From contig JAXDKT010000161.1 of NCBI GenBank assembly GCA_034666965.1, positions 5,603 through 69,602 on the forward strand: a DNA stretch of 64,000 nt. Reading direction: 5' to 3'. Below, one piece after another: positions 15,514 through 40,426 of this stretch (position 1 is the first letter of the stretch; every line of letters starts with the position of its first letter). The notes beneath the pieces were generated by a model. It was not told where the DNA came from. It did no database searches and saw only the letters and a list, made by a program, of their open reading frames with translations. Made by a program: the position numbers and the translations under genes. This stretch comes from Chloroflexota bacterium (GTDB taxonomy: Bacteria > Chloroflexota > Limnocylindria > Limnocylindrales > CSP1-4).

Positions 15514-15523
15514 CTGCTGTCTC

Positions 15524-16234
15524 CTACTTCCCGTCGCTCGCGACGGCCTGCTGCCTGACGTGGAGGATGCGTTGGATGACGGTGATCGTGGCGCCCAGGG
15601 CGATGATCCCCAGGGCGAGCTGGAGGATCACGATGCCCACCGGTACCGCGCCGGCGCCGGCCCCCAGGCCGGCACCGCCGCCGGTCCCCGAGATCCCGGC
15701 GAGGATGAGTCCGAGCGAGAGGACGATCAGGCGGACTTCGCGGGGCATCAATCCGACGGCGGCCATGCCCGTCCCCGTGGTGAACCCGAGACCTTCCGAC
15801 CTGGCCCTCGTGTAGCTGACCATGAACGCCGATCCCATCGCGGCCGCCGCCAGCACCGGGCCAGCCGCGTTCCCGCCGGCTTGAGCCAGGCCGGCGGCGA
15901 CCCCGACGTACACGAGCGCCTCGCCCCAGCGATCGAAGACCGAGTCCATGAACGCGCCGAGGTTGGAGACCTTGCCCGTCGCCCGGGCGAGGGTACCGTC
16001 GAACATGTCGAAGACCCCGCCGAGGAAGACGACGATCCCGCCGATCAGCCACTGCTGCAGGCCCAGCAGGATCGCCCCGACGACGGTGATCGCGAAGCCG
16101 ATCAGGGTCAGGCCGTTGGGGGTCAGGCCCAGCCGGCCGAGGAACAGGGCGACGGGCTCGGCCAGCGTCCTGACCCGGGCCCGGGTGCCGGGACTGACCA
16201 GCGAACCGCGGCCGGACGGCCTCGTCGCGCTCAT
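15524..16234 (-). CDS. pgsA: CDP-alcohol phosphatidyltransferase, phosphatidylinositol(-phosphate) synthase PgsA1-like
   Basis: [12 protein letters not shown] ... [10 protein letters not shown] (D-x2-DG-x2-AR...G-x3-D-x3-D motif). Five or six TM helices. The ATG at 16234 overlaps the regulator stop by 4 nt. Confidence 0.85.
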
Positions 16235-22000: not shown

Positions 22001-22941
22001 CCCTCCGGCCGGACCGGCCGCCGTCCCAGCTGCCGGCCATCGACGGGTGGCCCTTGGTCCGGCGCCGGCTGGTCGAGCTGGCGGCGGTCCCCGGACGGCT
22101 GCTCGTCGTGACCGACTTCGATGGGACGCTCGCGCCCATCGCCCTCGACCCGATGGCGGTCCGGATCGAGCCGCGCGGTCGGTTGGCCCTCCGTCATCTG
22201 GCCAGCCTCGCCGCGACGCAACCGGAGCGACTCAAGGTGGTCGTGCTCAGCGGCCGGACCGCGCACGACGTGGCGACGCGGGTCCGCGTGGGCGGGGTCG
22301 AATACCACGGGGATCATGGCATCCAGGCCGGCTACCTGCCCCGCGGGGTACCGGCCGAGCGGCTGGTGGCGAGCTCGGATCCGGCGCTCGCTCGACTGGT
22401 CGACGACGCCCGAGCGCTCGGCGTCGCGGTGGCGACCGCGCTCGGTCGGCCCGACTGGCTGTTCGTCGAGGACAAGGGCCCATCGGTCGCGTTCCACTTC
22501 CGGGCGGCCCGGGACCCGGCCGTCGCGGGGGGCCTGGTCGAGTCAGCGGTCGAGGCCGCCCTGGCCCGCCAGAAGGACCGCGATGGACAGTCGGTCTTTG
22601 CCCGGTTCGATGGCCGGCGGATCGTCGAGCTCCGTCCGGAGGGCGCGGGTGGCAAGGGCGCCACCCTGAGCCGCCTCCTCGCCGTGGGCGAATTCGACGC
22701 GGCCATCGTCCTGGGCGACGACCGCAGCGATGCCGAGGCGTTCGCCGTGCTCGCCGCCGCGCGCGCCGAGGGCCGCCTGGCGGCGAGCCTGGCGCTGGCG
22801 GTCCATGGCGCCGCCGAGACGCCGGCCGAGGTGGTGGCCGCCGCCGATCTGATGGTCGACGGGCCGCGTCAGGCGTCGCGTGCGCTGGCGACGCTGGCCC
22901 GGGCCATCGACGGCCCGTCACGGGCCAGGAGCCGGGACTAG
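21997..22941 (+). CDS. HAD-IIB trehalose-6-phosphate phosphatase-like hydrolase (OtsB family)
   Basis: GTG 21997 overlaps the TlpA stop (GTGA). LLVVTDFDGTLAPIA (motif I), VVVLSGRTA (motif II), LGDDRSDAEAF (motif IV). Confidence 0.7.
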   Translation: MTLRPDRPPSQLPAIDGWPLVRRRLVELAAVPGRLLVVTDFDGTLAPIALDPMAVRIEPRGRLALRHLASLAATQPERLKVVVLSGRTAHDVATRVRVGGVEYHGDHGIQAGYLPRGVPAERLVASSDPALARLVDDARALGVAVATALGRPDWLFVEDKGPSVAFHFRAARDPAVAGGLVESAVEAALARQKDRDGQSVFARFDGRRIVELRPEGAGGKGATLSRLLAVGEFDAAIVLGDDRSDAEAFAVLAAARAEGRLAASLALAVHGAAETPAEVVAAADLMVDGPRQASRALATLARAIDGPSRARSRD

Positions 22942-24407
22942 GAGACGAGTGCCCTGGCGGCGTCCTCGACCACGCGCACGAGGGGGCCGGGGTAGAGCCC
23001 CAGCAGGACGGTCAGGATCGCGGTCCCGGCCAGGCCCAGTCGGAGCAGGCCGCTCTTCTCGACCGCGGGCACGTCCTTGCCCTCGCGCATGTACATGTAG
23101 ACCACGACGCGCAGGTAGTAGAACGCAGCGACCGCGGCGTTGAGCACCAAGATGACCGCCAGGATCCCGGCCGGGCCGCCAGCCTCGACGGCGGCCAGGA
23201 CCACGTAGGCCTTGGCCAGGAACCCGGCCGTCGGCGGGATGCCCGTCAGCGACAGCAGGAAGAGGGTCATCAGGAGCGCCAGGGCCGGCTCGCGCCGGCC
23301 CAGACCCGCGAACGTCTCGATCGCGCTCGACACGCCCCGCCGGCGCTGGAGCGCGGCGACCACGGCGAACGCGCCCAGGTTCATGAAGCTGTAGGCGGCG
23401 CCGTAGTAGAGCAGGCCCTCGAGCCCGGCAATGCTCGAGTGGGGGCTGGCCCAGGCGGCCAGTCCCACGAGCATGTAGCCGGTATGCGCGATCGACGAGT
23501 AGGCCAGCATGCGCTTGACGTTGTCCTGGCTGATCGCGACGAGGTTGCCGAGCGTCATGGTGACCGTGGCCAGGACCACGATGACCATCAGCCAGTCCTC
23601 GCGAAGCGGCCCCAGGGCGCCAACGAACAGGCGCAGGATGAGCGCAAACGCACCGATCTTGGGCCCGACCGACAGATAGCCGGTCACCGGGGTGGGCGAG
23701 CCCTGGTACGCGTCCGGGGTCCAGTAATGGAACGGCACGGCGGCGATCTTGAAGGCCACGCCGGTTGTCAGGAAGGCCAGGCCCATGGCCAGCCCCGCCG
23801 ACAGCGGGGCGGTTCCGGCCACGATCTTGCCCAGCTCGGTCGCCACGACGTCAACCCGGGTCGAGCCGGTCAGGCCCCATATGAAGGCGAGGCCGAACAG
23901 GAAGATGGCTGAGCTGAACGAGCCCAACAGGAAGTACTTGATGGCACCCTCGGTCGACAACGCGTCGCGCTTGGCGAAGCCGGCCAGCAGATAGCCCGGC
24001 AGGACCATCAGCTCGAGACCCAGGAACAGCACCAGGAGGTCAGCCGCGGCCGAGATGAGGAGGGCCCCGCTCATGGCGAAGATGAGCACCGCCGCGAACT
24101 CGGCCAGGGGCAGGTCGCGCGCCGCGAGATAGTCCTTGGCGAAGACGATCGTCAACGCGACGACGGCCACGAAGAGCAGATCCAGGAATGTGGTCAGGGC
24201 GTCGAGCCGATAGGACCCTCCGAATGCCTCGCCCGGGGTCGCTCCGGTGATCAGGGTCACGATCGCCACCCCGGCCAGCCCGGCGAGGCTGATCGCAAGC
24301 GTCGCCCGGCGCGACCCCGGCACGATCAGGTCGACCACGATCAGCGCACCGGCGACGAGGACCGCCGCTACGAACGGCGCGATCGTGGTCAGGTCCTGGA
24401 CGGTCAT
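22938..24407 (-). CDS. nuoN: NADH-quinone oxidoreductase subunit N
   Basis: 14-TM antiporter-like subunit. Last gene of the nuo operon. Confidence 0.9.
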   Translation of the reverse strand: MTVQDLTTIAPFVAAVLVAGALIVVDLIVPGSRRATLAISLAGLAGVAIVTLITGATPGEAFGGSYRLDALTTFLDLLFVAVVALTIVFAKDYLAARDLPLAEFAAVLIFAMSGALLISAAADLLVLFLGLELMVLPGYLLAGFAKRDALSTEGAIKYFLLGSFSSAIFLFGLAFIWGLTGSTRVDVVATELGKIVAGTAPLSAGLAMGLAFLTTGVAFKIAAVPFHYWTPDAYQGSPTPVTGYLSVGPKIGAFALILRLFVGALGPLREDWLMVIVVLATVTMTLGNLVAISQDNVKRMLAYSSIAHTGYMLVGLAAWASPHSSIAGLEGLLYYGAAYSFMNLGAFAVVAALQRRRGVSSAIETFAGLGRREPALALLMTLFLLSLTGIPPTAGFLAKAYVVLAAVEAGGPAGILAVILVLNAAVAAFYYLRVVVYMYMREGKDVPAVEKSGLLRLGLAGTAILTVLLGLYPGPLVRVVEDAARALVS

Positions 24408-24422
24408 GGTCGGTGGGCTCCC

Positions 24423-25979
24423 TTACCGGACCAGCACGTGGAATGCGGCCACGGTGCCGCCCTGGACGCTCTCGAGGACGGTCGTCACCGACGTCTGGAC
24501 CAGGTTCAGGATGAGACCGGGGAACAGTCCGAAGACGACGATCAGGGCCCCCAGCGGGGCGAGGGTGAGCAGCTCGACCGGACGGATGTCGGTCAGGTGG
24601 CCGCCCAGCCCCGTCAGGAACTCCGACAGCTCGCCGGTGAACAGCCGCTGGAACATCCACAGCAGGTACGCGGCGGCCAGGATCATGCACGAGGTCGCGA
24701 CCGCGGCCACGTAGGGGTTGGCCGTGAAGGCGCCGACCAGGACGAGGAACTCGCCGACGAAGCCGGACAGGCCGGGCAGGCCCACGCTCGCGAACACGAA
24801 GAAGCCGAACGCCGCGGCATAGACCGGGGTCCGGCCCGCCAGGCCGCCGAGCTTGGCGATCGTCCGGTCGTGGGTTCGCTCGTAGATCACCCCGACCAGC
24901 AGGAACAGGGCCCCGGTGATCAGTCCGTGGTTGACCATCTGCAGGATCGCGCCCTGCATGCCCTGCTCCTGAAACACGAAGATCCCCAGGGTCACGAAGC
25001 CCATGTGGCTGACCGACGAATAGGCGATGAGCTTCTTGAGGTCCGGCTGGACCAGGGCCACGATCGCGCCGTAGATGATCGCGATGAGGCTGAGCACGAT
25101 GATCCACGGCGCAAAGGTCCGGGCCGCATCCGGGAACAGCGGCAGCGCGAACCGGATGAAGCCGTAGGCGCCGAGCTTGAGCATGATCGCGGCGAGGATC
25201 ACCGAGCCCGCCGTGGGAGCCTCGACGTGGGCATCCGGCAGCCAGGTGTGGAACGGGAACATCGGGACCTTGATGGCGAAGGCCAGGAAGAAGGCCAGGA
25301 AGGCGAACAGCTGGAGGCCGTTGGCGAAGCCGACGGTCCCGGCGAACGTCCGCAGCGACTCGAAGTCAAAGGCATTGGTCCACGAGCCAGTCGCGGCCTG
25401 GTAGGTGTAGGCGGTGGCCAGGATGGCGACCAGCATCAGGAGCGAGCCGACCAGCGTGTAGAGCACGAACTTGATGGTCGCGTAGATCCGGTTCGATCCG
25501 CCCCAGATCCCGATGATCAGGTACATCGGGACGAGGACGACCTCCCAGAACACGTAGAACAGGAACAGATCGAGGGCCACGAACACGCCGATCAGCCCGA
25601 CCTCGAGGATGAGGAACGAGATCATGTATTCCTTGAGGCGCTCCTTGATCGGGCCGAACGAAGCCAGGATGCTGATCCACGACAGGGTCGTGGTCAGGAC
25701 CACCAGGACCGCGCCCAGCCCGTCGACCCCGACCTTGTACTGGACTCCGAAGACGGGGATCCAGTCAACCCGCTCGACATACGAGAAGCCGCTCGCCAGG
25801 GGGTCGAACCCGATCAGCATCAGCAGCGACAGCCCGAACGACACGAAGGCCGCGCCCAGGGCGGTCCAGCGCACGGCGCGTTCGTTGCCCTTGGGGATGA
25901 ACGCGATGATCAGCGCCCCCACGAGGGGGACGAACGTGACCAGGCTGAGCAGCGGCAGGCTCGACCCCTCGACGATCAT
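24423..25979 (-). CDS. nuoM: NADH-quinone oxidoreductase subunit M
   Basis: Track ORF trimmed to ATG 25979 (MIVEGSSLPLLSL...). The ATGA overlap matches the nuoL stop. Confidence 0.9.
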   Translation of the reverse strand: MIVEGSSLPLLSLVTFVPLVGALIIAFIPKGNERAVRWTALGAAFVSFGLSLLMLIGFDPLASGFSYVERVDWIPVFGVQYKVGVDGLGAVLVVLTTTLSWISILASFGPIKERLKEYMISFLILEVGLIGVFVALDLFLFYVFWEVVLVPMYLIIGIWGGSNRIYATIKFVLYTLVGSLLMLVAILATAYTYQAATGSWTNAFDFESLRTFAGTVGFANGLQLFAFLAFFLAFAIKVPMFPFHTWLPDAHVEAPTAGSVILAAIMLKLGAYGFIRFALPLFPDAARTFAPWIIVLSLIAIIYGAIVALVQPDLKKLIAYSSVSHMGFVTLGIFVFQEQGMQGAILQMVNHGLITGALFLLVGVIYERTHDRTIAKLGGLAGRTPVYAAAFGFFVFASVGLPGLSGFVGEFLVLVGAFTANPYVAAVATSCMILAAAYLLWMFQRLFTGELSEFLTGLGGHLTDIRPVELLTLAPLGALIVVFGLFPGLILNLVQTSVTTVLESVQGGTVAAFHVLVR

Positions 25980-27955
25980 CGGCCGCTCACGATCACGAGG
26001 TACGAGCCGGCCATCACGATGAGCCCGATGGCGATCCCCAGGGCGTAGTTCTGGACCCGTCCCGTCTGGACCCGGCGCAGACCCGTGCCGAGCCCGCGGG
26101 CGAGCGCCCCCAGCCCGTTGACGGTGCCGTCCACGATCGTTCGGTCGAACCACCAGCAGGCCGTCGCGATCCGCCCGCCGACCCGGATGAAGAGCAGGTC
26201 GTTGAGCTCGTCGAACCACCACTTGTTGAGGGACGCGCGGTACAGGAAGCGGGTCGCGGCGTTCGCCTCGGCGATGGCGGTGACCTGCTCCGGACGCGGC
26301 GCCCGACGCAGGCCGAGCAGCTCGACTCCGAAGAAGTGCCAGGCGACCAGGATGCCGACGGTGGCGATGCCGACGCTGGCCAGGATCAGCGCCCCGTCGA
26401 TCCCGAACAGGCTGAACGCCGCCTCCGGATGGCCCGAGGCCGCGAGCGTCTCGGCAAAGACCGGCTCGAGCCAGGTGTGGATGAGGCTGTTCCCGAAGGG
26501 CAGACCCAGGACCAAGCCCAGGAAGATCGTGGGGATGGCCAGGATCACCAGGGGCACCGTCATCGACGGCGGCGACTCGTGGACCAGGGGCTCGATCTCG
26601 GGCGCGACATGGCTCGGGCCCCAGAAGGTCATGCCCATCAGCCGGAACATGTAGAAGGCGGTCATCCCGGCGACCACGAAACCGATCGCCCACACGACCA
26701 GGAAGCCGTTCTTGAACGCCTCGGCCAGGATCTCGTCCTTGCTGAAGAAGCCCGCCAGGGGTGGGATGCCCGCGATCGCCAGCGAGCCGATGAGCGTCGT
26801 CCAGTACGTGATCGGGATCCTTCGCCACAGGCCGCCCATCCGGCGCATGTCCTGCTCTTCGTGGACGGCGTGGATGACCGAGCCCGAATCGAGGAAGAGG
26901 AGGCCCTTGAAGAAGCCATGGGCCATCAGGTGGAAGATTGCGGCGGTCCACGCCCCGACTCCCAGCGCCGCGAACATGTAGCCGAGCTGGGACAGGGTCG
27001 AGTAGGCCAGCACGCGCTTGATGTCGGTCTGGGTGAAGGCGATCGAGGCGGCCAGGATCGCGGTGAAGATGCCGATCGCGGCGACCACGACCATCGCGCT
27101 CTGGGCGTGGCCGAAGATCGGGTTGGCCCGAGCCACCAGGTAGACCCCGGCGTTGACCATCGTCGCGGCGTGGATCAGGGCCGAGACCGGGGTGGGCCCC
27201 TCCATCGCGTCGGGCAGCCAGACGTGGAGCGGGAACTGGGCGCTCTTGCCGGCCGCCCCGCAGAACACCAGCAGGGCGATGGCCGTGATCGTGGGCTGGT
27301 CGAGCTCGCCGATCCGGGCCAGGACCTCCTGGACATTGAGCGTCCCGAGGCTGACGAAGATGAGCATGATCCCGAGGGCGAAGCCGACGTCACCCACCCG
27401 GTTGACGATGAATGCCTTCTTGCTGGCCAGCGCGGCGCTGCGTTTGCGGTACCAGAAGCCGATGAGCAGGTAGCTCGACAGACCGACCAGCTCCCAGGCC
27501 ACGAAGATCACCAGGAAGTTGTCGGCAAGGACGAGCAGGAGCATCGAGAACATGAACAGGTTGAGGTAGGCAAAGAAGCGCCACGTGCCCGGGTCGTGGC
27601 TCATGTACCCGATCGAATAGATGTGGACGAGCATCCCGATCGTGGTCACCACGATGAGCAGGCAAGCCGTCAGCGCGTCGACGTGGAAGCCGGCCTCCAC
27701 CACGAACTTGCCGGCCGGGATCCACTGCCACAGGCCGATCGAGTGGCCGTGCTCCCCGAACGGCTCGGCCCGGCCAAGGGCCGCGGCCGCGACGACCATC
27801 GCGGCCACCCAGCTGACGACCACGGCGCCGATCGGCAGCGCGCTCGCAGCATTGCGGCCGGAGCGGGCCTGCAGCCGCCGCCCGAACAGGGCGGTGAAGG
27901 CGAAACCGGCGAGGGGCAGCGTCGGAACGATCAGGATGAGGAGGTCGTAGGGCAT
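25976..27955 (-). CDS. nuoL: NADH-quinone oxidoreductase subunit L
   Basis: 659 aa. Antiporter-like core plus long C-terminal helix region. Confidence 0.9.
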   Translation of the reverse strand: MPYDLLILIVPTLPLAGFAFTALFGRRLQARSGRNAASALPIGAVVVSWVAAMVVAAAALGRAEPFGEHGHSIGLWQWIPAGKFVVEAGFHVDALTACLLIVVTTIGMLVHIYSIGYMSHDPGTWRFFAYLNLFMFSMLLLVLADNFLVIFVAWELVGLSSYLLIGFWYRKRSAALASKKAFIVNRVGDVGFALGIMLIFVSLGTLNVQEVLARIGELDQPTITAIALLVFCGAAGKSAQFPLHVWLPDAMEGPTPVSALIHAATMVNAGVYLVARANPIFGHAQSAMVVVAAIGIFTAILAASIAFTQTDIKRVLAYSTLSQLGYMFAALGVGAWTAAIFHLMAHGFFKGLLFLDSGSVIHAVHEEQDMRRMGGLWRRIPITYWTTLIGSLAIAGIPPLAGFFSKDEILAEAFKNGFLVVWAIGFVVAGMTAFYMFRLMGMTFWGPSHVAPEIEPLVHESPPSMTVPLVILAIPTIFLGLVLGLPFGNSLIHTWLEPVFAETLAASGHPEAAFSLFGIDGALILASVGIATVGILVAWHFFGVELLGLRRAPRPEQVTAIAEANAATRFLYRASLNKWWFDELNDLLFIRVGGRIATACWWFDRTIVDGTVNGLGALARGLGTGLRRVQTGRVQNYALGIAIGLIVMAGSYLVIVSGR

Positions 27956-27958
27956 CGG

Positions 27959-28270
27959 CTACTGCCGCATCGCGTCGTACTCGTCGACCAGCGGCGTCCG
28001 CCGGTTGCGGAAGATGGCGATCACGATGGCCAGCCCGACGGTCGCCTCGCCGGCCGCCACGGCGATCACGATCAGGGCAATGATCGATCCCTGCTCGCGC
28101 AGGAGCGGGTTGAACGCCCCGAAGGCGACGATCGCCAGGTTGACGGCGTTGAGCATCAGCTCGATTGACATGAGCATGCTGATCGCGTTGCGGCGGGCCA
28201 GGAAGCCGAACGTGCCGATGCAGAACAGCAGCGCCGACAGGATCAGGTAGGCGTCCAGCGAGTTGATCAT
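27959..28270 (-). CDS. nuoK: NADH-quinone oxidoreductase subunit K
   Basis: 103-aa three-TM protein MINSLDAYLILSALLF... with a conserved Glu in the TM. ATG 28270 overlaps the nuoJ stop. Confidence 0.9.
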   Translation of the reverse strand: MINSLDAYLILSALLFCIGTFGFLARRNAISMLMSIELMLNAVNLAIVAFGAFNPLLREQGSIIALIVIAVAAGEATVGLAIVIAIFRNRRTPLVDEYDAMRQ

Positions 28271-28818
28271 CCGCGGTCGGTCGCTTCCCCCTGGTCGAGC
28301 TCGCGCTTGGCCAGGTAGATGCCACCGATCACGGCGGCCAGGAGCAGGACGCTGACGACCTCGAACGGCAGCACGAAATCCCGGAACAGGATCCGGGCCA
28401 GCTCCGCGGTCCCCACCTGGAGCCGTTCCGCCGCCGCCCCCCAGTCGGTGGCACCGATGACCAGGACCAGGATCAGCGCCAGGATCACGGCCAGGATCGC
28501 CGCCGGGACGGCCTGGGTCTGGAACACCAGCCGGACCGGGGCGGCCTTGGTCTGGGTGAGCATGATCGCGAACAGGACCAGGACGCTGATGGCGCCGATG
28601 TAGATGAGCACCTGAGCGCCGGCGATGAGCGGCGCGCCGAGGATCACGTAGATCCCGGCCAGCGCCCCGAAGCACACGATCATCGCCAGGCCGCAGCGGA
28701 TGATGTCGCGCATCACCACGACCAGCAGGCCCGAGCCCAGGAGCAGCGCGGCGAAGGCCAGGAACAGGAGGTCGTTCCAGCTCAGCCCGATGAACGGGAT
28801 CGTGTCCGGGATCGCCAC
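28267..28818 (-). CDS. nuoJ: NADH-quinone oxidoreductase subunit J
   Basis: 183-aa five-TM protein. Position and composition typical of NuoJ. Confidence 0.85.
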   Translation of the reverse strand: MAIPDTIPFIGLSWNDLLFLAFAALLLGSGLLVVVMRDIIRCGLAMIVCFGALAGIYVILGAPLIAGAQVLIYIGAISVLVLFAIMLTQTKAAPVRLVFQTQAVPAAILAVILALILVLVIGATDWGAAAERLQVGTAELARILFRDFVLPFEVVSVLLLAAVIGGIYLAKRELDQGEATDRG

Positions 28819-28836
28819 CGCGCCCTCCTTCCTCGG

Positions 28837-31446: not shown

Positions 31447-31457
31447 CGGGCGCCTCG

Positions 31458-32795
31458 TCAGGCCCGTCCGGCGAGGGCCACCGCGATCGGGTGACACACG
31501 CCCGCGGGGCAGGTGCTGCGGAGGAGGTGATCGTCCAGCTCGGGCCGGAAGTATCGCATCGCGCTGGTTGTCGGAAGCGTCGCGAGCCGCTCGTGGTCGC
31601 ACAGGGCCGAGCCCACGATGTCGCTGGCCAGGTCGAGCGCCAGAGCGGCATCGCCCGGCCGGGGGGTCCCCGCGGCCATCCGATCGACGATCTCCGACAG
31701 GCGCCGCGTGCCGATCCGGCAGGGGATCGTCTTGCCGCAGGCCTGGTCGGCGCAGAACCGGGTCAACAGTCGGGCCAGATCGACGATGCAGGCTTGGTCG
31801 TCGGCGACCACGATGGAGCCCGAACCAATGTGGGCGTCGACGGCCCGAAGGGCGTCGTATTCGTAGGGCGTGTCGAGGAGGTCGGGTGGCAGGAAGCCCC
31901 CCGAAGGGCCGCCAACGAGAACGGCCTTGATCGGACGCTCGGGCTCGCTTCCGCGCCCACGAGCGTGGACGAGATCGACCAGGTCCCGCAGCTTCGTTCC
32001 GATTGGCACCTCGGCGATGCCCGCGCCGCCCGGTCCCCGGAGCTGGACCAGGATCGTCCCGGGGCTCGCCTTCGAGCCGATCGCGGCATACGCCTCAGCC
32101 CCGTGGTTCACGATCCAGGGGACCGCGGCCAGGGTCTGCACGTTGTGGACCAGCGTGGGGCGCCCGAAAAGTCCCTGCTCGGCTGGGTGCGGTGGACGTT
32201 GCTCGGGCTGCCCGCGCTTGCCCTCCAGCGCCTTGAGCAGGACGGTCTCCTCGCCCAACATGTAGGCGCCCTGAACGGGTCGGATCTCGATCCGCACCGG
32301 CCAGCCCGTCTCGACCGCGTCGGGGCCGATCAGGCCGGTCTCCTCGGCCGCGGAGATTGCTGCCTCGAGCGTCCGGATTGCCGCTTCGGCATCGGATCGA
32401 ACTGCGATGAAGCCTTGGCGGGCGTCGATCGCATAGGCCGCCAGGGCCATCCCCTCGATCACCGCGAACGGGGCCCGCTCGAGGAGCGTGCGGTCGGTCT
32501 GGACGGCGGGATCCGCGCCATAGCCGTTGGCCACGACGTAGCGACGGGCCTCGGGAGCGCTGGCTGCGGCACGCCACTTGGTCCCGCTCGGGAAGCCCGC
32601 CCCGCCGCGACCGCGCAGGCCCGAGCCGGCCACGGCGGTCACGACCTGGCTCGGGGTCATCGCTCGGACTGCGGTCTTGAGCGCCTCGAAGGCCCCGGTC
32701 CGGATCGCGCTGTCGAGATCGGTGGGATCGCCGCCGTCAGTCGCGGGCAGGAGCACCCGCGGCCAGCTCGAAGGAGTCGCGAGCAGGTTTGTCAC
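31458..32795 (-). CDS. nuoF: NADH-quinone oxidoreductase subunit F (FMN, N3 cluster), divergent
   Basis: GLRGRGGAGFPSGTKW (FMN/phosphate loop), YVVANGYGADP (NADH site, diverged), CGKTIPCRIG ... ALCDHE (N3 Cys ligands). Confidence 0.85.
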   Translation of the reverse strand: MTNLLATPSSWPRVLLPATDGGDPTDLDSAIRTGAFEALKTAVRAMTPSQVVTAVAGSGLRGRGGAGFPSGTKWRAAASAPEARRYVVANGYGADPAVQTDRTLLERAPFAVIEGMALAAYAIDARQGFIAVRSDAEAAIRTLEAAISAAEETGLIGPDAVETGWPVRIEIRPVQGAYMLGEETVLLKALEGKRGQPEQRPPHPAEQGLFGRPTLVHNVQTLAAVPWIVNHGAEAYAAIGSKASPGTILVQLRGPGGAGIAEVPIGTKLRDLVDLVHARGRGSEPERPIKAVLVGGPSGGFLPPDLLDTPYEYDALRAVDAHIGSGSIVVADDQACIVDLARLLTRFCADQACGKTIPCRIGTRRLSEIVDRMAAGTPRPGDAALALDLASDIVGSALCDHERLATLPTTSAMRYFRPELDDHLLRSTCPAGVCHPIAVALAGRA

Positions 32796-33463
32796 CGTTC
32801 GCCCGCCGGTGCGTCGTCGGCCGCGTCCGGTCGGGCGCCTCGCCCGCTGAGAGCGCCGTCGAGCGCGCCCAGGTAGGCCTCGTCCGCGCGCCCCGGCGCC
32901 GCCGCGGGAGCGCCGACCGCCAGGTGGTCGTAGTAGGTGGCCGTGCCGTAGAGCATGGCGTACCAGGCACCGGTCGACTGGCTCACCCGCTTGAGCGCCG
33001 CGACGGGAACGTAGCCGTACTCGGCCTGGATCGCGGCGAGGATCCCGAGGAGCTCCTTGGGATCGTGGTCGAAGCCCTCGAGGATTTCGTCGACGGCGTG
33101 CAGATCGATCCCGTGGAAGTGCTCATAAACCGGGTCGGGAACGGTCCGTCCGGCGCGCCGGAGGGCCGACTCCTCGCGCCGTTCGCCATAGGTCTCGGGC
33201 GGGCCCCAGTGGATCGCATAGCGGCCCTTGGTGTCGACGCCACCCATGTCGATGCACTCGACCGGGCAGGCCTGGGCGCATTGGAAGCAGGTCTCGCATT
33301 TGAGCGTCCCGTACTCGTCGTAGAGCAGCTGCAGACGCCCCCGGAACTTGGGCGGGATGCTGGCCGGGACCTCGGGATAGAGGTTGGTGACCTTGGGCTC
33401 GAAGAAGCGGCGCAGGGTCAGGGCCATGCCCCGAACCAGACCGAGTCCGGGCACGAAGCTCAT
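32792..33463 (-). CDS. chimeric 223-aa protein: NuoI N-terminal half (one CxxCxxCxxxCP motif) fused to a cysteine-less NuoE-like thioredoxin-fold N-domain
   Basis: LRRFFEPKVTNLYPEVPASIPPKFRGRLQL ... CETCFQCAQACPVECIDM is the NuoI N-terminus plus its first Fe-S motif. The second motif is absent. The C-terminal half, HAVDEILEGFDHDPKELLGILAAIQAEYGYVPVAALKRVSQSTGAWYAMLYGTATYYDHL, resembles the NuoE N-domain but carries no Cys for N1a. Confidence 0.7.
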   Translation of the reverse strand: MSFVPGLGLVRGMALTLRRFFEPKVTNLYPEVPASIPPKFRGRLQLLYDEYGTLKCETCFQCAQACPVECIDMGGVDTKGRYAIHWGPPETYGERREESALRRAGRTVPDPVYEHFHGIDLHAVDEILEGFDHDPKELLGILAAIQAEYGYVPVAALKRVSQSTGAWYAMLYGTATYYDHLAVGAPAAAPGRADEAYLGALDGALSGRGARPDAADDAPAGER

Positions 33464-33473
33464 CGGGTGGTCC

Positions 33474-34820
33474 TCATCGGATGCCGTCCACGACCAGGAT
33501 GGCCAGGGCGGTCACGAACAGGTTGAGCAGCGAAGCGGGCAACAGCCACTTCCAGGCGAAGCCCATGAGCTGATCGATCCGGACCCGCGGCAACGTTCCG
33601 CGCATCCACACGAAGAGGAATACGAAGCCATACGTCTTGGTCAGGAACCAGAGCAGGCCCACGACCCAGTCGAAGCTGAGGAATGCGAACCCGACGAGCG
33701 CCGCCACGGCCACCAGGTTGAACAGGACGAAGCCGATGACCAGCGCCTGCCACAGCTTGACCTGGCTGTTGACGAGGTAGAAGGGCAGGCCCAGGACCAA
33801 GATTCCCAGCGGCGGGATGAGCGCCAGGGCGAACAGCAGGCCGATGCCCATGCCGCTCAGATCGGGCTGGGCCACGATCGGCCAGGGCCAGTCGAAGGGC
33901 GCGTTCCAGCCGCCCATGAAGAGGGCCACCGTCAGGCCCGAGACGATGAACACGTTGACGTACTCGGCGAAGAAGAAGAACCCGAAGCGCATACCCGAGT
34001 ACTCGGTGGCGAACCCGGCCACGATCTCGGAGTCCGCCTCGGTCAGGTCGAACGGGGTCCGGTTCGCCTCAGCGGTCGCGGCGATGAAGAAGATCACGAA
34101 GGCCAGTGGCTGCCGGAAGACGTACCAGTCGAACAGGCTGCCGGACTGGTTGAGGGTGATCTGGTTGACGCTCAGGGTTCCCGACAGCAGGACGATCCCG
34201 ACCACCGACAGGGTCAGCGGGATCTCGTAGCTCACGATCTGGGCCGCCGCCCGAAGCCCGCCCAGCAGCGAGTACTTGTTGAAGCTGGACCAGCCGGCCA
34301 TCAGCAACCCGACCACGCCCAGCCCGCCCATGGCGAAGAAGTAGAGCAGCCCGATGTTGAGGTCCAGGCCGAACAGGCCGGGAGCGAACGGGACCACGAC
34401 CAGGGTCATGACGCTGGCGACATAGACCACGATCGGGGCCCAGGTGAACACCAGCGGGTCGGCCCCGGTCGGGGTGAAGTCCTCTTTCATCAGGACCTTG
34501 AGCCCGTGGACCACCGACAGCAGCGAGCCATACGGCCCGACCCGGTCGGGACCGTAGCGCAGGTTCATCAGGGCGATGACCTTCATCTCCATGTAGATGA
34601 TCAGGAAGGCCGTCGGGACGGTCATCAGCAGGATGATGGTTGCGGCCACGACGAAGCGGACGAGCGGCACGTTGTCGCCCAGGAAGGTCAGGACCACCGG
34701 TCCGACGATGACCACGGCTGCGGTCAGGCCGGCGGCCAGGACGAGCAGCAGGGGCACGGCCGTGAACACGATCTTGCCCGGCAGGGTCAGGCGGCCGAAC
34801 GTCCGACTGAGCATCGCCAT
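33474..34820 (-). CDS. nuoH: NADH-quinone oxidoreductase subunit H
   Basis: 448-aa polytopic protein with the conserved NuoH loop AGWSSFNKYSLLGGLRAAAQIVSYEI and the quinone-site EYxxxxF-like segment TEYSGMRFGFFFFAEY. Confidence 0.9.
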   Translation of the reverse strand: MAMLSRTFGRLTLPGKIVFTAVPLLLVLAAGLTAAVVIVGPVVLTFLGDNVPLVRFVVAATIILLMTVPTAFLIIYMEMKVIALMNLRYGPDRVGPYGSLLSVVHGLKVLMKEDFTPTGADPLVFTWAPIVVYVASVMTLVVVPFAPGLFGLDLNIGLLYFFAMGGLGVVGLLMAGWSSFNKYSLLGGLRAAAQIVSYEIPLTLSVVGIVLLSGTLSVNQITLNQSGSLFDWYVFRQPLAFVIFFIAATAEANRTPFDLTEADSEIVAGFATEYSGMRFGFFFFAEYVNVFIVSGLTVALFMGGWNAPFDWPWPIVAQPDLSGMGIGLLFALALIPPLGILVLGLPFYLVNSQVKLWQALVIGFVLFNLVAVAALVGFAFLSFDWVVGLLWFLTKTYGFVFLFVWMRGTLPRVRIDQLMGFAWKWLLPASLLNLFVTALAILVVDGIR

Positions 34821-35996
34821 CTACTTGTCGACGCCCCCCATGATCGGATCGAGCGAGGCCATGATCGCCATCGTGTCGGCGATGAGATTGCCCGGGGTCA
34901 GCAGCCCGACCGCCTGGAGGTGGACGAAGCTGGGGTCATGGATCCGCATCCTGAAGGGCTGGTCGGTTCCGTCACTGATGGCGTACGTGGCGTACTGCCC
35001 GCGAGGACCCTCGACCGCGGCGTAGGCCCGGCCGGGCCGGGGCCGCATCAGCCGGGGCAGCTTGGCCATGATCGGCCCGTCGGGCATCTCGTTGAGGCAC
35101 TGGTCGATGATCCGCAGGCTCTGCTTGATCTCATCGAGACGAACCAGGTAGCGCGCGAGGCAATCGCCTTCCTGGCGGGTCGGGACATCGAAGTCGAGCT
35201 CGGGATAGATGCTGTAGGGGTGCGACCGGCGCATGTCCAGGGGAACCCCGGAGGCCCGGATGTTGGGTCCGGTCATGCACATCCGGAAGGCGGTTTCGCG
35301 ATCGAGCGTGCCCAGGCCGCGCATGCGCCGGACGAAGATCTCGTTCTGATTGAGTAGGGTCTGGTTGGCCTCGATCTGCTCGGTGGCCTTGCTCATCCAG
35401 GTCCCCAGCCGGCTCATGAACTCGTGATTGAGATCGCCGTTGACGCCGCCGATCCGGAAGTAATTGAAGAGCATCCGTTGACCGGTGAGCGCGGCCAGCA
35501 GCTCGACGATGTCGTCGCGCTCGATGAAGCTCCACAGGATCGGCGTCAGCCCGCCGAGGTCGAGCGCCATCCAGCCCATGAACAGGGCGTGACTGGCGAC
35601 CCGGTTGAGCTCACCCGACAGGACCCGGATGTATTCGGCGCGGCGCGGGACCTCGACGTCCATGAGCTTCTCGAAGGCCATCACCGGGGCCCATTCGTTG
35701 AACAGCGCGCTGACGTACTCGAGCGGATCGGTGTAGGCGATGGTGTGGTGGTAGTCGGCGTTCTCGCACAGCTTCTCCACGCCGCGATGGAGGTAGCCCA
35801 GGACCGGGTCAAGGTCGACCACGCGCTCGCCCTCGAGCTTGAGCACGACCCGCAGGACGCCGTGGGTGGAGGGATGCTGCGGCCCCATGTTGACGAACAG
35901 CTCGCCGTCGCCGAGGGTGTAGAACTCGGCCTCGCGCTCGGTCCGAGGCGGATATGGCGGGATCGGCTCGAAGACGCCGATCTGCTCCTCGAGCAT
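34821..35996 (-). CDS. nuoD: NADH-quinone oxidoreductase subunit D (49 kDa)
   Basis: ATG 35996 (MLEEQIG...); GTG 36038 is an alternative. MGPQHPSTHGVLRVVLKLEGE, YLHRGVEKL, C-terminal IMASLDPIMGGVDK. Confidence 0.9.
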   Translation of the reverse strand: MLEEQIGVFEPIPPYPPRTEREAEFYTLGDGELFVNMGPQHPSTHGVLRVVLKLEGERVVDLDPVLGYLHRGVEKLCENADYHHTIAYTDPLEYVSALFNEWAPVMAFEKLMDVEVPRRAEYIRVLSGELNRVASHALFMGWMALDLGGLTPILWSFIERDDIVELLAALTGQRMLFNYFRIGGVNGDLNHEFMSRLGTWMSKATEQIEANQTLLNQNEIFVRRMRGLGTLDRETAFRMCMTGPNIRASGVPLDMRRSHPYSIYPELDFDVPTRQEGDCLARYLVRLDEIKQSLRIIDQCLNEMPDGPIMAKLPRLMRPRPGRAYAAVEGPRGQYATYAISDGTDQPFRMRIHDPSFVHLQAVGLLTPGNLIADTMAIMASLDPIMGGVDK

Positions 35997-36048
35997 GACC
36001 CGCGGATCGTCCGTGGACGGGACCCGGATGGTCGTCACCGCCGCTGCC

Positions 36049-36600
36049 TCAGCTCGACCTGGTCCGCCGGACACGATCGTCCGGGGTCGCGTCGACCGGC
36101 TCGTGGGTGCGTTCCATGTGGCGGACGCCGCCGCCCGGGGAGCGGGCCGCATCGTCGGGCAGGTAGAAGTCCTTGCGCAACGGGAAGCTGGTGTAGTCGG
36201 CCGGCATATAGATCCGGCGCAGGTCGCGGTTGCCTTCGAACGCGATTCCGAACATGTCGTAGGCCTCGCGCTCCTGCCACTCGGCGCCCTTCCACAGGAA
36301 GGTGACCGAGGGGACCCGCGGATCGTCGCGGGACAGGCCGTCCGCGACCACTCGCAGCCAGTCCGGGCTGGTCGGGCTCCACAGGTGATAGACCGCCTGC
36401 ATCGTGGTCCCGGTGTCGACGCCGCACAGGTCCATCAGGGCCTCGAACCCGAAGTCGGGCTCGTCATGAAGCGCCCGCATGACCTCGGGCAGGTCGCCCG
36501 GCGCGACCCGGATCTCGGTCTCGTCGTGGCGCTGGCGAACGGGCCCCAGCAGCCACTGTCCGAAGCGGGCTTCGAGGCGGCGCCGGAGGGATCGGTCCAC
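36049..36600 (-). CDS. nuoC: NADH-quinone oxidoreductase subunit C (30 kDa)
   Basis: Trimmed to GTG 36600, 5 nt after the nuoB stop. The upstream part of the track ORF is Arg/Gly junk. DLCGVDTG ... EREAYDMFGIAFEGNRDLRRIY ... FPLRKDF. Confidence 0.75.
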   Translation of the reverse strand: MDRSLRRRLEARFGQWLLGPVRQRHDETEIRVAPGDLPEVMRALHDEPDFGFEALMDLCGVDTGTTMQAVYHLWSPTSPDWLRVVADGLSRDDPRVPSVTFLWKGAEWQEREAYDMFGIAFEGNRDLRRIYMPADYTSFPLRKDFYLPDDAARSPGGGVRHMERTHEPVDATPDDRVRRTRSS

Positions 36601-36605
36601 CGGGC

Positions 36606-37340
36606 TCAGACTCCGTCCGGGACGGTCGGCCCGATGGCGCGCTCCGGCCAGTGGCCGCGGCGCTCGAGCACGAGCTGCTGGAGCTTCATCATCCCGTAGA
36701 TGAGGCCCTCCGGCCGGGGCGGACAGCCCGGCACGTAGACGTCCACGGGCATCACCCGGTCGATCCCCTGGATCGTCGAGTAGCTCCGCTTGTAGCGTCC
36801 GCCCGAGCAGGTGCAGTCCCCCATCGCGACGCACCACTTGGGTTCGGGCATCTGTTCCCACAGGCGGACGAGCGGGCCGGCCATCTTGGTCGTCAGCGTG
36901 CCGGCCACGATCAGGACGTCGGCCTGGCGCGGGCTGGCCCGGAACGGGAACATGCCCCAGCGATCCATGTCGTTCTTGGACGTCGCCGCCGACATCATCT
37001 CGATGGCACAGCAGGCCAGGCCCGACAGGAGCGGCCAGAGGCTGTTCGCCCGGATCAGGTCGAGCACGACGTCGGCCTTGGTCGGGATGACCTCGAGGGC
37101 ACCCCAGCGAGCGTCGTCGTGACGGCCGGCGTCGCTGGCTGCGTACTCGCGCAGATGAGCGGCGTCGGACGTGCCCGCGGCGCTGTACGCGGCCGGCTCG
37201 GCCGATTGCCAGAGCGTGTTCGGGACCACGATCGGGGCCATCGGGTCGCGATCGCCGGCGACCGTGAGCGAGCGCTCGTCGGTCGGCTCGGCGGCTTCCA
37301 CGCCGGCCGGCCCGGTCGCGCCCTCGGGCGTCAGCGCCAT
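36606..37340 (-). CDS. nuoB: NADH-quinone oxidoreductase subunit B (N2 cluster) with an approx. 70-80-aa acidic/Ala-rich N-terminal extension
   Basis: SLWPLLSGLACCAIEMM, CTCSGG, GCPPRPE (N2 ligands). Core preceded by MALTPEGATGPAGVEAAEPTDERS...; internal ATG (MAPIVV) at 37241 is an alternative start. Confidence 0.85.
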   Translation of the reverse strand: MALTPEGATGPAGVEAAEPTDERSLTVAGDRDPMAPIVVPNTLWQSAEPAAYSAAGTSDAAHLREYAASDAGRHDDARWGALEVIPTKADVVLDLIRANSLWPLLSGLACCAIEMMSAATSKNDMDRWGMFPFRASPRQADVLIVAGTLTTKMAGPLVRLWEQMPEPKWCVAMGDCTCSGGRYKRSYSTIQGIDRVMPVDVYVPGCPPRPEGLIYGMMKLQQLVLERRGHWPERAIGPTVPDGV

Positions 37341-37687
37341 GTCAGGACACCCTTGCGCCAGGCGTAGGCCAACCCCAGCAGGAGGATCCCGACGAACACG
37401 AGCATGCTCACCAGGCCGCCCAGGAGCAGGTCCCGGAAGACGATCGCCCAGAGGTAGATGAAGATCACCTCGATGTCGAACGCCACGAACAGCAGGGCGT
37501 AGATGTAGAACGACAGGCCGAATCGACCGTGGGTATCGCCGTACGTGTCAATGCCCGACTCGTAGGGCAGGCCCTTGTGGCCGTCGCCACGGTTTCGATG
37601 GGAGATGAGCCAGGCCGCGCCGATGGTCACGATGACGAACGAGACGCCGGCGAAGGCGAACCCGACGACGTACCAGATCCCGGTCAA
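37331..37687 (-). CDS. nuoA: NADH-quinone oxidoreductase subunit A
   Basis: 118-aa three-TM protein; first gene of the nuo operon. Confidence 0.85.
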   Translation of the reverse strand: MTGIWYVVGFAFAGVSFVIVTIGAAWLISHRNRGDGHKGLPYESGIDTYGDTHGRFGLSFYIYALLFVAFDIEVIFIYLWAIVFRDLLLGGLVSMLVFVGILLLGLAYAWRKGVLTWR

Positions 37688-38009: not shown

Positions 38010-39221
38010 CTAGGCGGGCAGCCGGAAGCGCAACCCGATGAGCGGCGGATCGGGGGCGAGGCCACGACCGAGCAGGCTCACCCGGAAGCCACCCATGGCC
38101 CGCGGGTCGAGCAGCCGGGCAACGCTCGAGCGGACCGCCAGCCACTCCTCGAGGGTGGTGTCCGGATCGGAGCGGATCGCCTCGAGCAGCTCGTCCATGC
38201 CGGCCCCGACCAGGAACTCGGCCTGGGTGGTCAGCCCGAGGGGCGTCAGCCCGGCCGCTCGGGCCGCCCGCTCGAGGGCGCTGAAGTCCACGTGCGCGGT
38301 CAGGTCCTGGCGGCCGACGGCGACGGTCCAGTCGTCGTGGGCCCGATGGGCGCTGTACGCCAGGAGCGTGCCCGCGCCCCGCGCGGGCCCATACAGCTCG
38401 CCCGCGAGGTGGCCGTAGTCGACGATCAGAACCGCGCCGCGGGCCAGCCCCTGGGCCACCTCGCCCAGCCACCCGTCGAGCTCGAGGCAGACCTCCGCCC
38501 GGGCGCCGTCGGCCAGGACGATCCCGTCCGCCGCAAACCGCGCCGCGAGGGCCGGGCTGGACGGCTCACCGGCCCGCTCGACGAAACCACTCTCGTCCCA
38601 GTCGACGAAGAGCTCCTCCAGCTGACCGCCGCGTCGACCCACGACGCGATGGACCGGCAGCGCGTCGACGAACTCGTTCGCCAGGACCGCGCCAACCTCC
38701 TCGGCGCCGGCCTCGAGCTCGAGGACCGAACCGGACCCGGCGGCCTCGATCCGCCTGACGAGCTCCTCGCGCCGGAACGCGTTGAGCTCGACCGGCGCGT
38801 AACGCAGAGCCGCCGCCAGCCCTGGCGACCCGGCGACCCGGCCAAGCTGGCCGCGACCGGCGAGGGCGTCGAGAATCGCCGCCGCGAGCGCCCCCGACCC
38901 GGCGCCGTACTCGCGCAGCACGAAGCGCGCCGGCCGATCCAGCCGCCGCCAGATCTCGTCGAGCTGGCGGGCGATCGCGGCGCCAAAGATCGGATGGGTC
39001 TCCGGCGCCGTCAGGAAGTCGCCGGCCCGGCCGGGACGCTCGGTCGCGCCGCGGTAGTAGCCCAGCCCGGGTTCGTACAGGGCCAGCTCCATGAACCGGG
39101 CAAAGGTGATCGGGCCGTCGGCCTCGATCTCGGCCCGGATCCGCTCGACGAGCGCGGGTTCGCCGGCCGTCGGCAGCGGCGCCGGTGCCGGCCCGCGCCC
39201 GAAGGCCGCCTCGAGGTCCAT
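38010..39221 (-). CDS. MidA/NDUFAF7-family class I SAM-dependent methyltransferase (COG1565, Methyltransf_28)
   Basis: ITFARFMELALYEPGLGYY, GDFLTAPETHPIFGAAIA, LREYGAGSGALAAAIL (SAM motif I). Same strand as and directly upstream of nuoA. Confidence 0.75.
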   Translation of the reverse strand: MDLEAAFGRGPAPAPLPTAGEPALVERIRAEIEADGPITFARFMELALYEPGLGYYRGATERPGRAGDFLTAPETHPIFGAAIARQLDEIWRRLDRPARFVLREYGAGSGALAAAILDALAGRGQLGRVAGSPGLAAALRYAPVELNAFRREELVRRIEAAGSGSVLELEAGAEEVGAVLANEFVDALPVHRVVGRRGGQLEELFVDWDESGFVERAGEPSSPALAARFAADGIVLADGARAEVCLELDGWLGEVAQGLARGAVLIVDYGHLAGELYGPARGAGTLLAYSAHRAHDDWTVAVGRQDLTAHVDFSALERAARAAGLTPLGLTTQAEFLVGAGMDELLEAIRSDPDTTLEEWLAVRSSVARLLDPRAMGGFRVSLLGRGLAPDPPLIGLRFRLPA

Positions 39222-39227
39222 CGAAGC

Positions 39228-40373: not shown

Positions 40374-40426
40374 CGAGCGAGTCTAGCGACGGCGACCGGC
40401 GAGCACGGCGGGAGGGCCGGCCTTCG

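Follow-up and report, generated by a model that had tools for sequence, protein, structure and literature searches.

We analyzed a stretch of 64,000 nucleotides from a Chloroflexota bacterium assembly (GCA_034666965.1, contig JAXDKT010000161.1, positions 5,603 to 69,602), hereafter called the window and having a G+C content of about 70%, with regard to its genes for respiratory complex I, the bacterial subunits of which are named NuoA to NuoN. The minus strand of positions 22938-37687 was found to carry one densely packed complex I operon, with several ATGA overlaps at the junctions. Pfam matches together with a reading of all junctions gave the order nuoA-B-C-D-H-[I'/E']-[NuoF-like]-[G']-J-K-L-M-N, where I'/E' is a protein of 223 residues, the NuoF-like protein has 445 residues and G', occupying the slot of nuoG, has 869 residues. 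An earlier reading of the letters alone, here called the sequence-only reading, had proposed this order with three rebuilt genes between nuoH and nuoJ, as well as the presence of nuoA, B, C, D, H, J, K, L, M and N, and both proposals were confirmed; nuoA, B, C, D, H, J and K were named by Pfam, and nuoL, nuoM and nuoN by operon position and collinearity with related operons. All eleven subunits of the Q-module and the membrane arm are encoded together, with NuoI among them in the form of two halves. Beyond what had been proposed, the module between nuoH and nuoJ is a cassette of the Nfn/Stn type of Bfu enzymes that lies inside nuoI, and fuller as well as differently fused versions of it exist elsewhere.

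The two outer proteins of the cassette share one NuoI between them, with the first ferredoxin motif on I'/E' and the second at the C-terminus of G', and NuoI is here not one polypeptide. The half carried by I'/E' comprises the N-terminus, the first CxxCxxCxxxCP and the next hairpin, and ends exactly ahead of the second motif. Its residues 9-94 align with residues 7-90 of NuoI from M. smegmatis (8e9g_I) and its residues 11-81 with residues 15-86 of NuoI from E. coli (7awt_I), and the four cysteines of the motif are invariant in 76 sequences. In G', residues of about 750-800, with the motif CILCGICVDACP followed by DQFEL, match NuoI in one stretch, at residues 91-131 of the E. coli and 94-151 of the P. 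denitrificans protein. The break lies, in M. smegmatis numbering, between '...GERYGR' and 'VYQINYLRC...'. When the N-piece and the C-piece were linked per genome for 22 diverse loci and the profile thereby obtained was searched against all PDB sequences, its positions 4-145 matched NuoI/TYKY in one stretch (e.g. residues 85-214 of TYKY) with 118 bits and an E-value of 2e-33, compared with about 49 and 48 bits for the single halves as queries. The two pieces are collinear complements of one NuoI (residues 7-90 plus about 91-150). A reading of motifs B and C of G' as an ordinary internal dicluster ferredoxin (Pfam Fer4_7) was rejected because motif C with the DQFEL segment is NuoI-specific; the partner of motif B is motif A instead, which is also the arrangement of NfnA and HydA.

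Behind its NuoI half, I'/E' holds a piece of NuoE that covers only positions 2-58 of the 145 in the Pfam 2Fe-2S_thioredx profile and that gave PDB matches to residues of about 20-83 of NfnC, HydC and FdsG, as well as to proteins of the 24-kDa type. The thioredoxin-like [2Fe-2S] domain (N1a/C1) is not present in I'/E', which has zero cysteines past residue 70, in agreement with the previous description of a Cys-less NuoE half-domain behind half a NuoI.

The large protein G' starts at 31446, 11 nt past the stop codon of the preceding gene; a GTG-initiated open reading frame (ORF) of 921 residues was rejected as its full extent, overlapping nuoF, and MTDLIIRP was taken as the true start. Residues 39-769 of G' match residues 5-699 of NfnA from the Caldicellulosiruptor NfnABC with an E-value of 5e-157, and StnC (8OH5) was matched with an E-value of 2e-137; the archaeal NfnA (9N5U) matches G' over residues 33-568 only. 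Within this match, the [2Fe-2S] domain aligns with residues 5-70 of NfnA and is followed by a GltD-type domain having two [4Fe-4S] sites (C134, C138, C142, C181, C185 and C189), PDB matches to NfnA, StnC, NfnB and GltD, and the flavin adenine dinucleotide (FAD) motif GSGPAG together with GGGFTSMD...VYRR, conserved in all relatives aligned. A YRR motif after the second dinucleotide fold goes with NADPH binding in the GltD/NfnB-type family. Further on, residues of about 610-745 align to residues of about 560-680 of NfnA, with an all-Cys motif at the N5 position, C616-x2-C-x-C-x5-C627, as in NfnA, and with a complete HydA-type 2x[4Fe-4S] domain (C684-C694 and C727-C737), which is one cluster more than in NuoG. 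From the last cysteine of this domain it is 21 residues to the first cysteine of the NuoI motif, and G' runs into the NuoI-like segment where NfnA runs into a vestigial formate dehydrogenase-like (Fdh-like) domain. No Molybdopterin Pfam match was obtained with G', which ends with the NuoI C-half, and the Pfam and PDB alignments bore out the view of the nuoG slot as containing a GltD/NfnB-like flavoprotein and the rest of NuoI, with no molybdopterin-like domain. The tail behind the NuoI half is rich in Gly, His and Asn (GPNGPNGHGGAHGGNGHGGAGGRHAHHE) and might bind metal; a similar tail occurs in the consensus of close homologues, with poorly conserved positions.

The NuoF-like protein has a flavin mononucleotide (FMN) domain and an N3 domain, and contains GRGGAGFP as its FMN loop as well as the GEET motif. 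Its best PDB matches were NfnB (375 bits) and HydB/StnB (about 355 bits), with canonical NuoF reaching at most 258 bits. It covers only the core residues 104-526 of NfnB and stops right after CPAGVC, having no N-terminal thioredoxin-like domain, no C-terminal ferredoxin domain and no ferredoxin motifs. Its N3/B1 motif is shifted, C348-x4-C353-GK(T/S)IP-C359 ... C399, with Thr or Ser in place of the canonical middle cysteine, and this form, FC-x4-C-GK-(T/S)-IP-C and not C-GK-C-xP-C, is found throughout the Limnocylindrales clade. At the related locus L005, the third N3/B1 cysteine is Gly. The ligation of N3/B1 appears to be evolutionarily labile in reduced forms of the cassette.

The sequence-only reading had held that all cofactor sites for an electron wire are still encoded, and this could be maintained in part. 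The FMN motifs, the [2Fe-2S] cluster, the NuoI motifs and the ligands of N2 are in place, the last being the four cysteines of NuoB that can all be read in its translation (CCAIEM, GDC and GCPP). The N3 motif is shifted, and the His-Cys3 cluster had to be abandoned, since the alignment to NfnA gave only cysteines at the N5 position and it is the GltD-type cluster domain that begins with the 'HNAYC' stretch. Judging from all of these alignments, I'/E', the NuoF-like protein and G' are closer to NfnCBA/StnABC of the Bfu type than to NuoEFG, the three being homologous to BfuC, BfuB and BfuA in that gene order, as compared with the stn order. The features of the operon and of the rest of the window are collected in Table 1.

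Table 1. Positions of the complex I genes, of the domains in the cassette proteins and of other genes in the window.
Feature	Position	Strand	Description
nuoA	37331-37687	-	118 aa; Pfam Oxidored_q4, E 2.8e-31
nuoB	36606-37340	-	244 aa if ATG at 37340 is used; Pfam Oxidored_q6
nuoC	36049-36600	-	183 aa; GTG start just past nuoB stop; Pfam Complex1_30kDa
nuoD	34821-36038	-	405 aa; Pfam Complex1_49kDa, E 2.6e-86
nuoH	33474-34820	-	448 aa; directly after nuoD; Pfam NADHdh, E 4.6e-103
I'/E'	32792-33463	-	223 aa
NuoI N-half	33179-33463	-	I'/E' aa 1-95; first CxxCxxCxxxCP (C56, C59, C62, C66)
NuoE/HydC/NfnC N-terminal helical domain	32918-33112	-	I'/E' aa 118-182
I'/E' tail	32792-32917	-	aa 183-223; poorly conserved
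nuoF-like	31458-32795	-	445 aa; Pfam Complex1_51K and NADH_4Fe-4S
G'	28837-31446	-	869 aa; start MTDLIIRP
NuoG/HydA-type [2Fe-2S] domain	31132-31332	-	G' aa 39-105; C70, C81, C84, C98; Pfam Fer2_4
GltD/NfnB-type flavoprotein	29797-31059	-	G' aa 130-550; Pfam Fer4_20 and Pyr_redox_2
All-Cys N5-position cluster and HydA-type 2x[4Fe-4S]	29212-29619	-	G' aa 610-745 (C616, C619, C621, C627 at N5 position); weak Pfam Fer4_Nqo3
NuoI C-half	28957-29211	-	G' aa 746-830; second CxxCxxCxxxCP (C759, C762, C765, C769)
Gly/His-rich tail and stop codon	28837-28956	-	G' aa 831-869; conservation 0.3-0.4
nuoJ	28267-28818	-	183 aa; Pfam Oxidored_q3
nuoK	27959-28270	-	103 aa; ATGA overlap with nuoJ; Pfam Oxidored_q2
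nuoL	25976-27955	-	659 aa; operon position and tblastn collinearity with L004
nuoM	24423-25979	-	518 aa; ATGA overlap with nuoL; position and matches to related loci
nuoN	22938-24407	-	489 aa; position and collinearity with related operons
NDUFAF7/MidA-family S-adenosylmethionine-dependent methyltransferase	38010-39227	-	directly upstream of nuoA; Pfam Methyltransf_28, E 1.4e-50
Very long ORF	4590-10208		up to 1872 aa; protein O-mannosyltransferase domains
GT4 glycosyltransferase	10205-11725		
Lipid A-type acyltransferase	13244-14365		
myo-Inositol-1-phosphate synthase	14269-15627		

With regard to conservation, a relative of G' was found to be encoded in 405 species genomes, as counted in data with one genome per species. 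The best 80 of these 405 are metagenome-assembled genomes (MAGs) that, apart from a few with other labels, are assigned to Chloroflexota, Chloroflexia or Limnocylindrales. The complete 13-gene order was seen in 54 of 86 loci, and the others, as ordered by tblastn, showed subsets consistent with contig ends and a few single-gene differences. I'/E' is 100% identical to a public protein (P0121) of a Chloroflexota MAG, found on four contigs, and G' has thousands of full-length homologues of more than 80% identity in JGI, ENA, NCBI and Logan data, the named ones being from Chloroflexota or Candidatus Limnocylindrales. All 30 of the 30 iron-sulfur (Fe-S) motif cysteines of G' are invariant in 84 sequences, and among the three cassette proteins conservation is highest in G'. 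Conserved were also the FAD fold and the NADPH-type fold; in 83 sequences of the NuoF-like protein, the FMN loop, the GEET motif as part of GAY-x-x-GEET and three of the four N3 cysteines were conserved or invariant. The three proteins are under selection and not an artefact. An assembly artefact, a frameshift or a set of decaying pseudogenes could be argued from the unusual layout and from nothing else, and this explanation, to which we assign a negligible probability, was rejected in view of the identical public I'/E', the thousands of homologues, the 405 species genomes and the invariant cofactor cysteines. The synteny comparison had been suggested together with the sequence-only reading, and the order complete in 54 loci removed the artefact as a way of refuting it; its view of a functional redesign rather than gene decay is supported by the number of genomes, the invariant Fe-S cysteines and the collinear NuoI halves.

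In agreement with what had been stated before on a canonical nuoE or nuoG, no further nuo-type gene was found among the 28 other ORFs of the window with high G+C at third codon positions (GC3) that were scanned, in a Pfam search made ORF by ORF and not as a six-frame hidden Markov model (HMM) search. A separate nuoE/nuoG pair elsewhere in the genome could not replace the cassette proteins, because these carry the only NuoI halves of the operon.

Divergent relatives, of 27-62% identity, were obtained with I'/E' searched against cluster representatives and with the C-terminal region of G' searched against metagenomes. One clade has the full A-B-C-D-H-I'E-F-G'-J-K-L-M-N order at loci L148 and L155, with partial versions at L149, L150, L152 and L153, and the named close relatives of this clade are MAGs of Thermoleophilia or Actinobacteria. 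In this Thermoleophilia type, the NuoI N-half is joined to a NuoE that is complete and keeps the [2Fe-2S] cysteines, F is a complete BfuB of 629 residues having a thioredoxin-like domain at the N-terminus, CGKCVPC in its canonical form and a 2x[4Fe-4S] ferredoxin domain at the C-terminus, and G' consists of an NfnA-like protein with the NuoI C-half. At L155 (5134-10370; also L148, L149 and L153), a complete Nfn-type Bfu module is seen inside nuoI of a full complex I operon, and the membrane enzyme of that type would have potential sites for NADH, NADPH, ferredoxin and quinone. A third design was found at L004 (1321-6023), with the NuoI N-half fused to a full NuoE, an F protein of 1048 residues made up of thioredoxin-like, NuoF and C-terminal GltD domains, the last with a degenerate second dinucleotide motif (no YRR), and a short NuoG-like protein of 265 residues that carries the canonical His-ligated HxxxCxxCxxxxxC together with the NuoI C-half. 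Reduced loci like that of the window include L002, L005, L163 and L165, in all of which N(G/A)Y(G/D)ADP takes the place of NADEGDPGAF in the NuoF-like protein. The relatives form a graded series, from a complete Bfu module to a reduced head. Both NuoI half-fusions are kept across the three domain arrangements and in two phyla, which is strong evidence for the fusions being a functional attachment.

In some reduced relatives (L002 and L162-L166), nuoJ-N are not adjacent to the A-B-C-D-(H)-I'E-F-G' block, and the membrane-arm genes of L002, L163, L165 and L166 must be located elsewhere or be absent. Such blocks, together with the existence of soluble NfnABC, would fit with one operon encoding two separate enzymes, of which one is a complex I of 11 subunits and the other a soluble Nfn-like transhydrogenase. 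We regard this as highly improbable, with the sole NuoI sequence of the operon being divided between the two outer cassette proteins, with an intact nuoI between nuoH and nuoJ in none of the 54 complete loci, and with both fusions kept in all three arrangements and both phyla. At L165, I'E directly follows nuoD with nuoH not being between them, and at L002 (6481-14281) the neighbors are genes for pyruvate:ferredoxin oxidoreductase and a ferredoxin gene.

As the layout can be written A-B-C-D-H-I(N)-[cassette]-I(C)-J-N and the cassette proteins are closest to Nfn/Stn, the most economical history, and the simplest that we can infer, would be that an nfnC-nfnB-nfnA-like cassette entered an 11-gene operon, A-B-C-D-H-I-J-K-L-M-N, at a point of nuoI that separates the two ferredoxin motifs. 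Such an insertion would have given rise to the two fusions, NuoI(N-half)::NfnC N-domain and NfnA-like::NuoI(C-half). An 11-subunit complex I has been reported in Chloroflexi (PMC3144371). Taken further, and put forward here tentatively as an idea somewhat less probable than its negation, complex I could have made a second, independent gain of an NAD(P)H-oxidizing head, through entry of a whole bifurcating transhydrogenase cassette into nuoI, with living lineages that keep the stages; if true, these stages would be the complete Nfn-Bfu head in MAGs labelled Thermoleophilia and the stripped-down heads in Limnocylindria.

For the function of the operon, the reading that we find best, at a probability of roughly 60%, is that of an NAD(P)H:menaquinone oxidoreductase that pumps protons and has two flavin entries, and whose input module would have been recruited from a Bfu-type transhydrogenase and not inherited as NuoEFG. 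Its assembly, donor specificity, electron path and proton pumping we infer from sequence. In NfnABC, NADPH is oxidized at the FAD of NfnA and electrons follow the path FAD-A7-A6-A3-A2-A1-B1/FMN, with A2-A4-A5 forming a dead-end toward the vestigial Fdh-like domain, and the N-domain of NfnC anchors the trimer (PMC11829005). In the window enzyme, the NuoI halves would reassemble as the two-cluster N6a/N6b domain on NuoB/D/H, thereby bolting the new module to the Q-module, and the kept NfnC N-domain would clamp the NuoF-like subunit, as in NfnABC. NADH would give up its electrons to FMN in the NuoF-like subunit, NADPH would do so to FAD in the GltD-like domain, and the two flavins would feed the Fe-S chain of G'. 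The branch that is dead-ended in NfnA would here become the exit, with electrons passing over N6a/N6b and N2 to menaquinone and the unaltered membrane arm pumping protons; the cluster that hands electrons on to NuoI may be either the one at the N5 position, which does so in complex I, or the HydA-type cluster next to it.

Several observations weigh against this reading. In the NuoF-like site, 'NADEGDPGAF' has become 'NGYGADP', the middle N3 cysteine is replaced by Thr or Ser and the cysteine upstream of it is found in only 70 of 83 sequences; with the NADE motif and the N3 ligation altered, oxidation of NADH at the FMN is therefore not assured. The NADPH specificity of the GltD domain would follow from motif similarity only, and the ligand of the A7 cluster is His204 in G', invariant in 84 sequences, compared with Lys170 in Csac NfnA and Lys in Bfu enzymes. 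A direct Fe-S wire between the two flavins could also short-circuit the pools of NADPH and NADH. The AlphaFold2 predictions, finally, gave a pLDDT (predicted local distance difference test score) of 43.7 for a direct chimera of the NuoI halves run as single sequence, and of 34.8 for G' with 38 close homologues, both values being too low to be informative.

The first of these points could also be taken to mean a complex I that uses NADPH only, with the GltD-like FAD as the sole physiological entry and the NuoF-like protein being a structural or electron-storage relic, or a flavin binder that does not turn over. The replacement of NADEGDPGAF by N(G/A)Y(G/D)ADP in all reduced forms would be in line with this, as would the rearranged N3 ligation, the lower conservation of the NuoF-like protein than of G', and the loss of the cluster from the E' piece that would clamp it. 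We nonetheless consider it unlikely, since the FMN loop, GAY-x-x-GEET and three of the four N3 cysteines are kept in the 83 sequences, and a subunit of 445 residues that is full-length in hundreds of species argues for activity.

The dual-donor reading, as we understand it for Limnocylindria, is expected to be that of a plain NAD(P)H:quinone oxidoreductase with no bifurcation. The defined site of bifurcation is the B1-FMN-C1 flavobicluster (PMC11829005), and as the NuoE-type [2Fe-2S] cluster and the extra clusters and domains of BfuB have been lost, the enzyme has neither the known bifurcation site nor any ferredoxin site. A bifurcating or confurcating membrane enzyme, a 'Nuo-Nfn-Bfu' that couples NADH, NADPH, and ferredoxin or quinone, for example with exergonic reduction of menaquinone driving NADP+ reduction by NADH, would agree with the homology of the module to bifurcating NfnABC/StnABC, with every Bfu core element being kept in the Thermoleophilia-type relatives, and with the membrane-bound 'Nuo-Bfu' enzymes predicted in other phyla (PMC9304861). 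It is nevertheless distinctly unlikely for the window, where C1, the N-terminal domain of BfuB and the C-terminal ferredoxin domain are absent, as they are at all Limnocylindria-type loci, and with NADH and NADPH both being strongly exergonic donors to menaquinone there would be no need for it.

The GltD-like domain could also be an output, to NADP+ or another acceptor, making the enzyme a transhydrogenase linked to the respiratory chain or, in reverse, one that forms NADPH from menaquinol and proton-motive force. Nfn/Stn enzymes are reversible, with a physiological direction in acetogens that includes reduction of NADP+ (PMC7483475), and the two flavins are wired together in NfnABC. We found no evidence for a lifestyle requiring reverse electron flow, however, and the proton-motive force could not drive such an output, because the direct wire from FMN to FAD bypasses the coupling site; the quinone sink should moreover hold the chain oxidized, and this possibility was judged to be very unlikely.

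Complex I is taken as NADH-specific, and to our knowledge its use of NADPH has been obtained only via an engineered NuoF of E. coli. If the dual-donor reading is true, the enzyme of the window would be the first natural proton-pumping complex I that oxidizes NADPH as well as NADH. The operon design is present in hundreds of uncultured Limnocylindria and Thermoleophilia genomes. Under the more radical reading, in which the exergonic reduction of menaquinone controls or drives the hydride transfer between NADH and NADPH, the enzyme would be a transhydrogenase coupled to the respiratory chain. A natural NADPH-type flavin site would change the models of redox balance for Limnocylindria (Ellin6529) and Thermoleophilia. 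Most of what is known of these groups comes from metagenomes of soil and freshwater, and all close relatives found in the present searches were MAGs. As for evolution, the case for an N-module descended from soluble enzymes of the NuoEFG-like or Bfu-like kind has usually been built on comparisons between distant systems. In the present operon the seam would still be visible as a cassette in nuoI, with coexisting intermediate grades that make the steps directly testable, and a 2x[4Fe-4S] ferredoxin domain split over two subunits as a docking device would be an unusual natural case of split-domain complementation. Present annotations call the genes 'FAD-dependent oxidoreductase', 'ferredoxin' or 'formate dehydrogenase major subunit', for which reason NuoE, NuoG and NuoI would be counted as missing from these genomes in automated surveys.

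Among the ordinary complex I genes, the L004 gene matching nuoL has Pfam Proton_antipo_N/M and NADH5_C domains, and nuoM matches Proton_antipo_M genes of related loci. NuoB, if the ATG at 37340 is its start, has an N-terminal extension of about 100 residues (1-100), rich in Ala, Pro and Glu, ahead of the conserved core, and divergent relatives align to it only from residue 83 or thereabouts. NuoH has an N-terminal extension of about 60 residues and, at residues of about 310-388, a hydrophobic insertion of about 78 residues that probably forms extra transmembrane helices; this insertion is missing in the Thermoleophilia-type and other divergent relatives, with which the tblastn match is split into residues of about 53-310 and 386-444. 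The NDUFAF7/MidA-family gene upstream of nuoA was found at 69 of 75 Limnocylindria-type loci and was not found at the divergent loci that were checked; in mitochondria, the NDUFAF7 family serves in the assembly of complex I, methylating the homologue of NuoD. Elsewhere in the window, the gene run at 10205-15627, beside which the very long ORF with O-mannosyltransferase domains lies, recalls the synthesis of phosphatidylinositol mannosides in actinobacteria, and two ORFs with coding-like GC3, at 67-2463 (plus strand, 798 residues) and 39228-40382 (minus strand, 384 residues), had no Pfam match at E <= 1e-5.

Comparing with known systems, the cassette shares with NfnABC/StnABC (PDB 9BOV/9BP5, 8OH5 and 9N5U) the NuoE-like, NuoF-like and [2Fe-2S]-GltD-FeS parts in the same order, the all-Cys motif, both GltD clusters and the FAD and NADPH motifs, with a NuoF-like protein closest to NfnB. 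It differs from them in being joined to a membrane complex I via the NuoI half-fusions, in lacking C1, the N-terminal and C-terminal ferredoxin domains of NfnB and NfnA's Fdh-like domain (A5), and in having His where NfnA has Lys as the A7 ligand. With the canonical 14-subunit complex I of T. thermophilus, E. coli and M. smegmatis the operon of the window has in common the eleven Q-module and membrane subunits, a predicted FMN flavoprotein, and an Fe-S chain to N6a/N6b and N2. Compared with that enzyme, nuoH follows nuoD, the E-F-G-like genes lie inside nuoI and NuoI is spread over two polypeptides; N1a, the molybdopterin-like domain of NuoG and N7 are missing, the ligation of N3 is altered and the N5-position cluster is all-Cys instead of His-ligated, whereas an FAD/NADPH domain, two GltD-type clusters and one [4Fe-4S] cluster are added.

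The 'Nuo-Bfu' enzymes, predicted in Deferribacteres, Proteobacteria, Planctomycetes and Nitrospirae by Schut et al. 2022 (PMC9304861), likewise combine a complex I operon with a Bfu-type module that replaces NuoEFG, and menaquinone is their likely acceptor. They are however 14-subunit A-N systems, with a BfuBC core that is complete and with confurcation of NADH and ferredoxin as the predicted activity, whereas the module of the window is reduced and of the Nfn type; their description gives no GltD domain, and NuoI has 0 mentions in that paper (PMC9304861). In the literature searched, which included HMM surveys of complex I variants, we found no description of a split nuoI or of an Nfn-type head on complex I. 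The 11-subunit complex I (NuoABCDHIJKLMN) has a frame that is identical to the window operon minus its cassette, but its NuoI is intact, and it has no flavoprotein module of its own. The Mbx-like clusters of Thermotoga and proteobacteria, finally, also combine a GltD-type NAD(P)H flavoprotein with a membrane enzyme related to complex I (Degli Esposti 2015, PMC4758237), but there GltD substitutes for NuoI in a complex of Mrp/hydrogenase type and is proposed to reduce NAD(P)+ (PMC4758237), whereas the operon of the window keeps NuoI, although split, with GltD embedded in a NuoG/NfnA-like subunit beside a NuoF-like flavoprotein.

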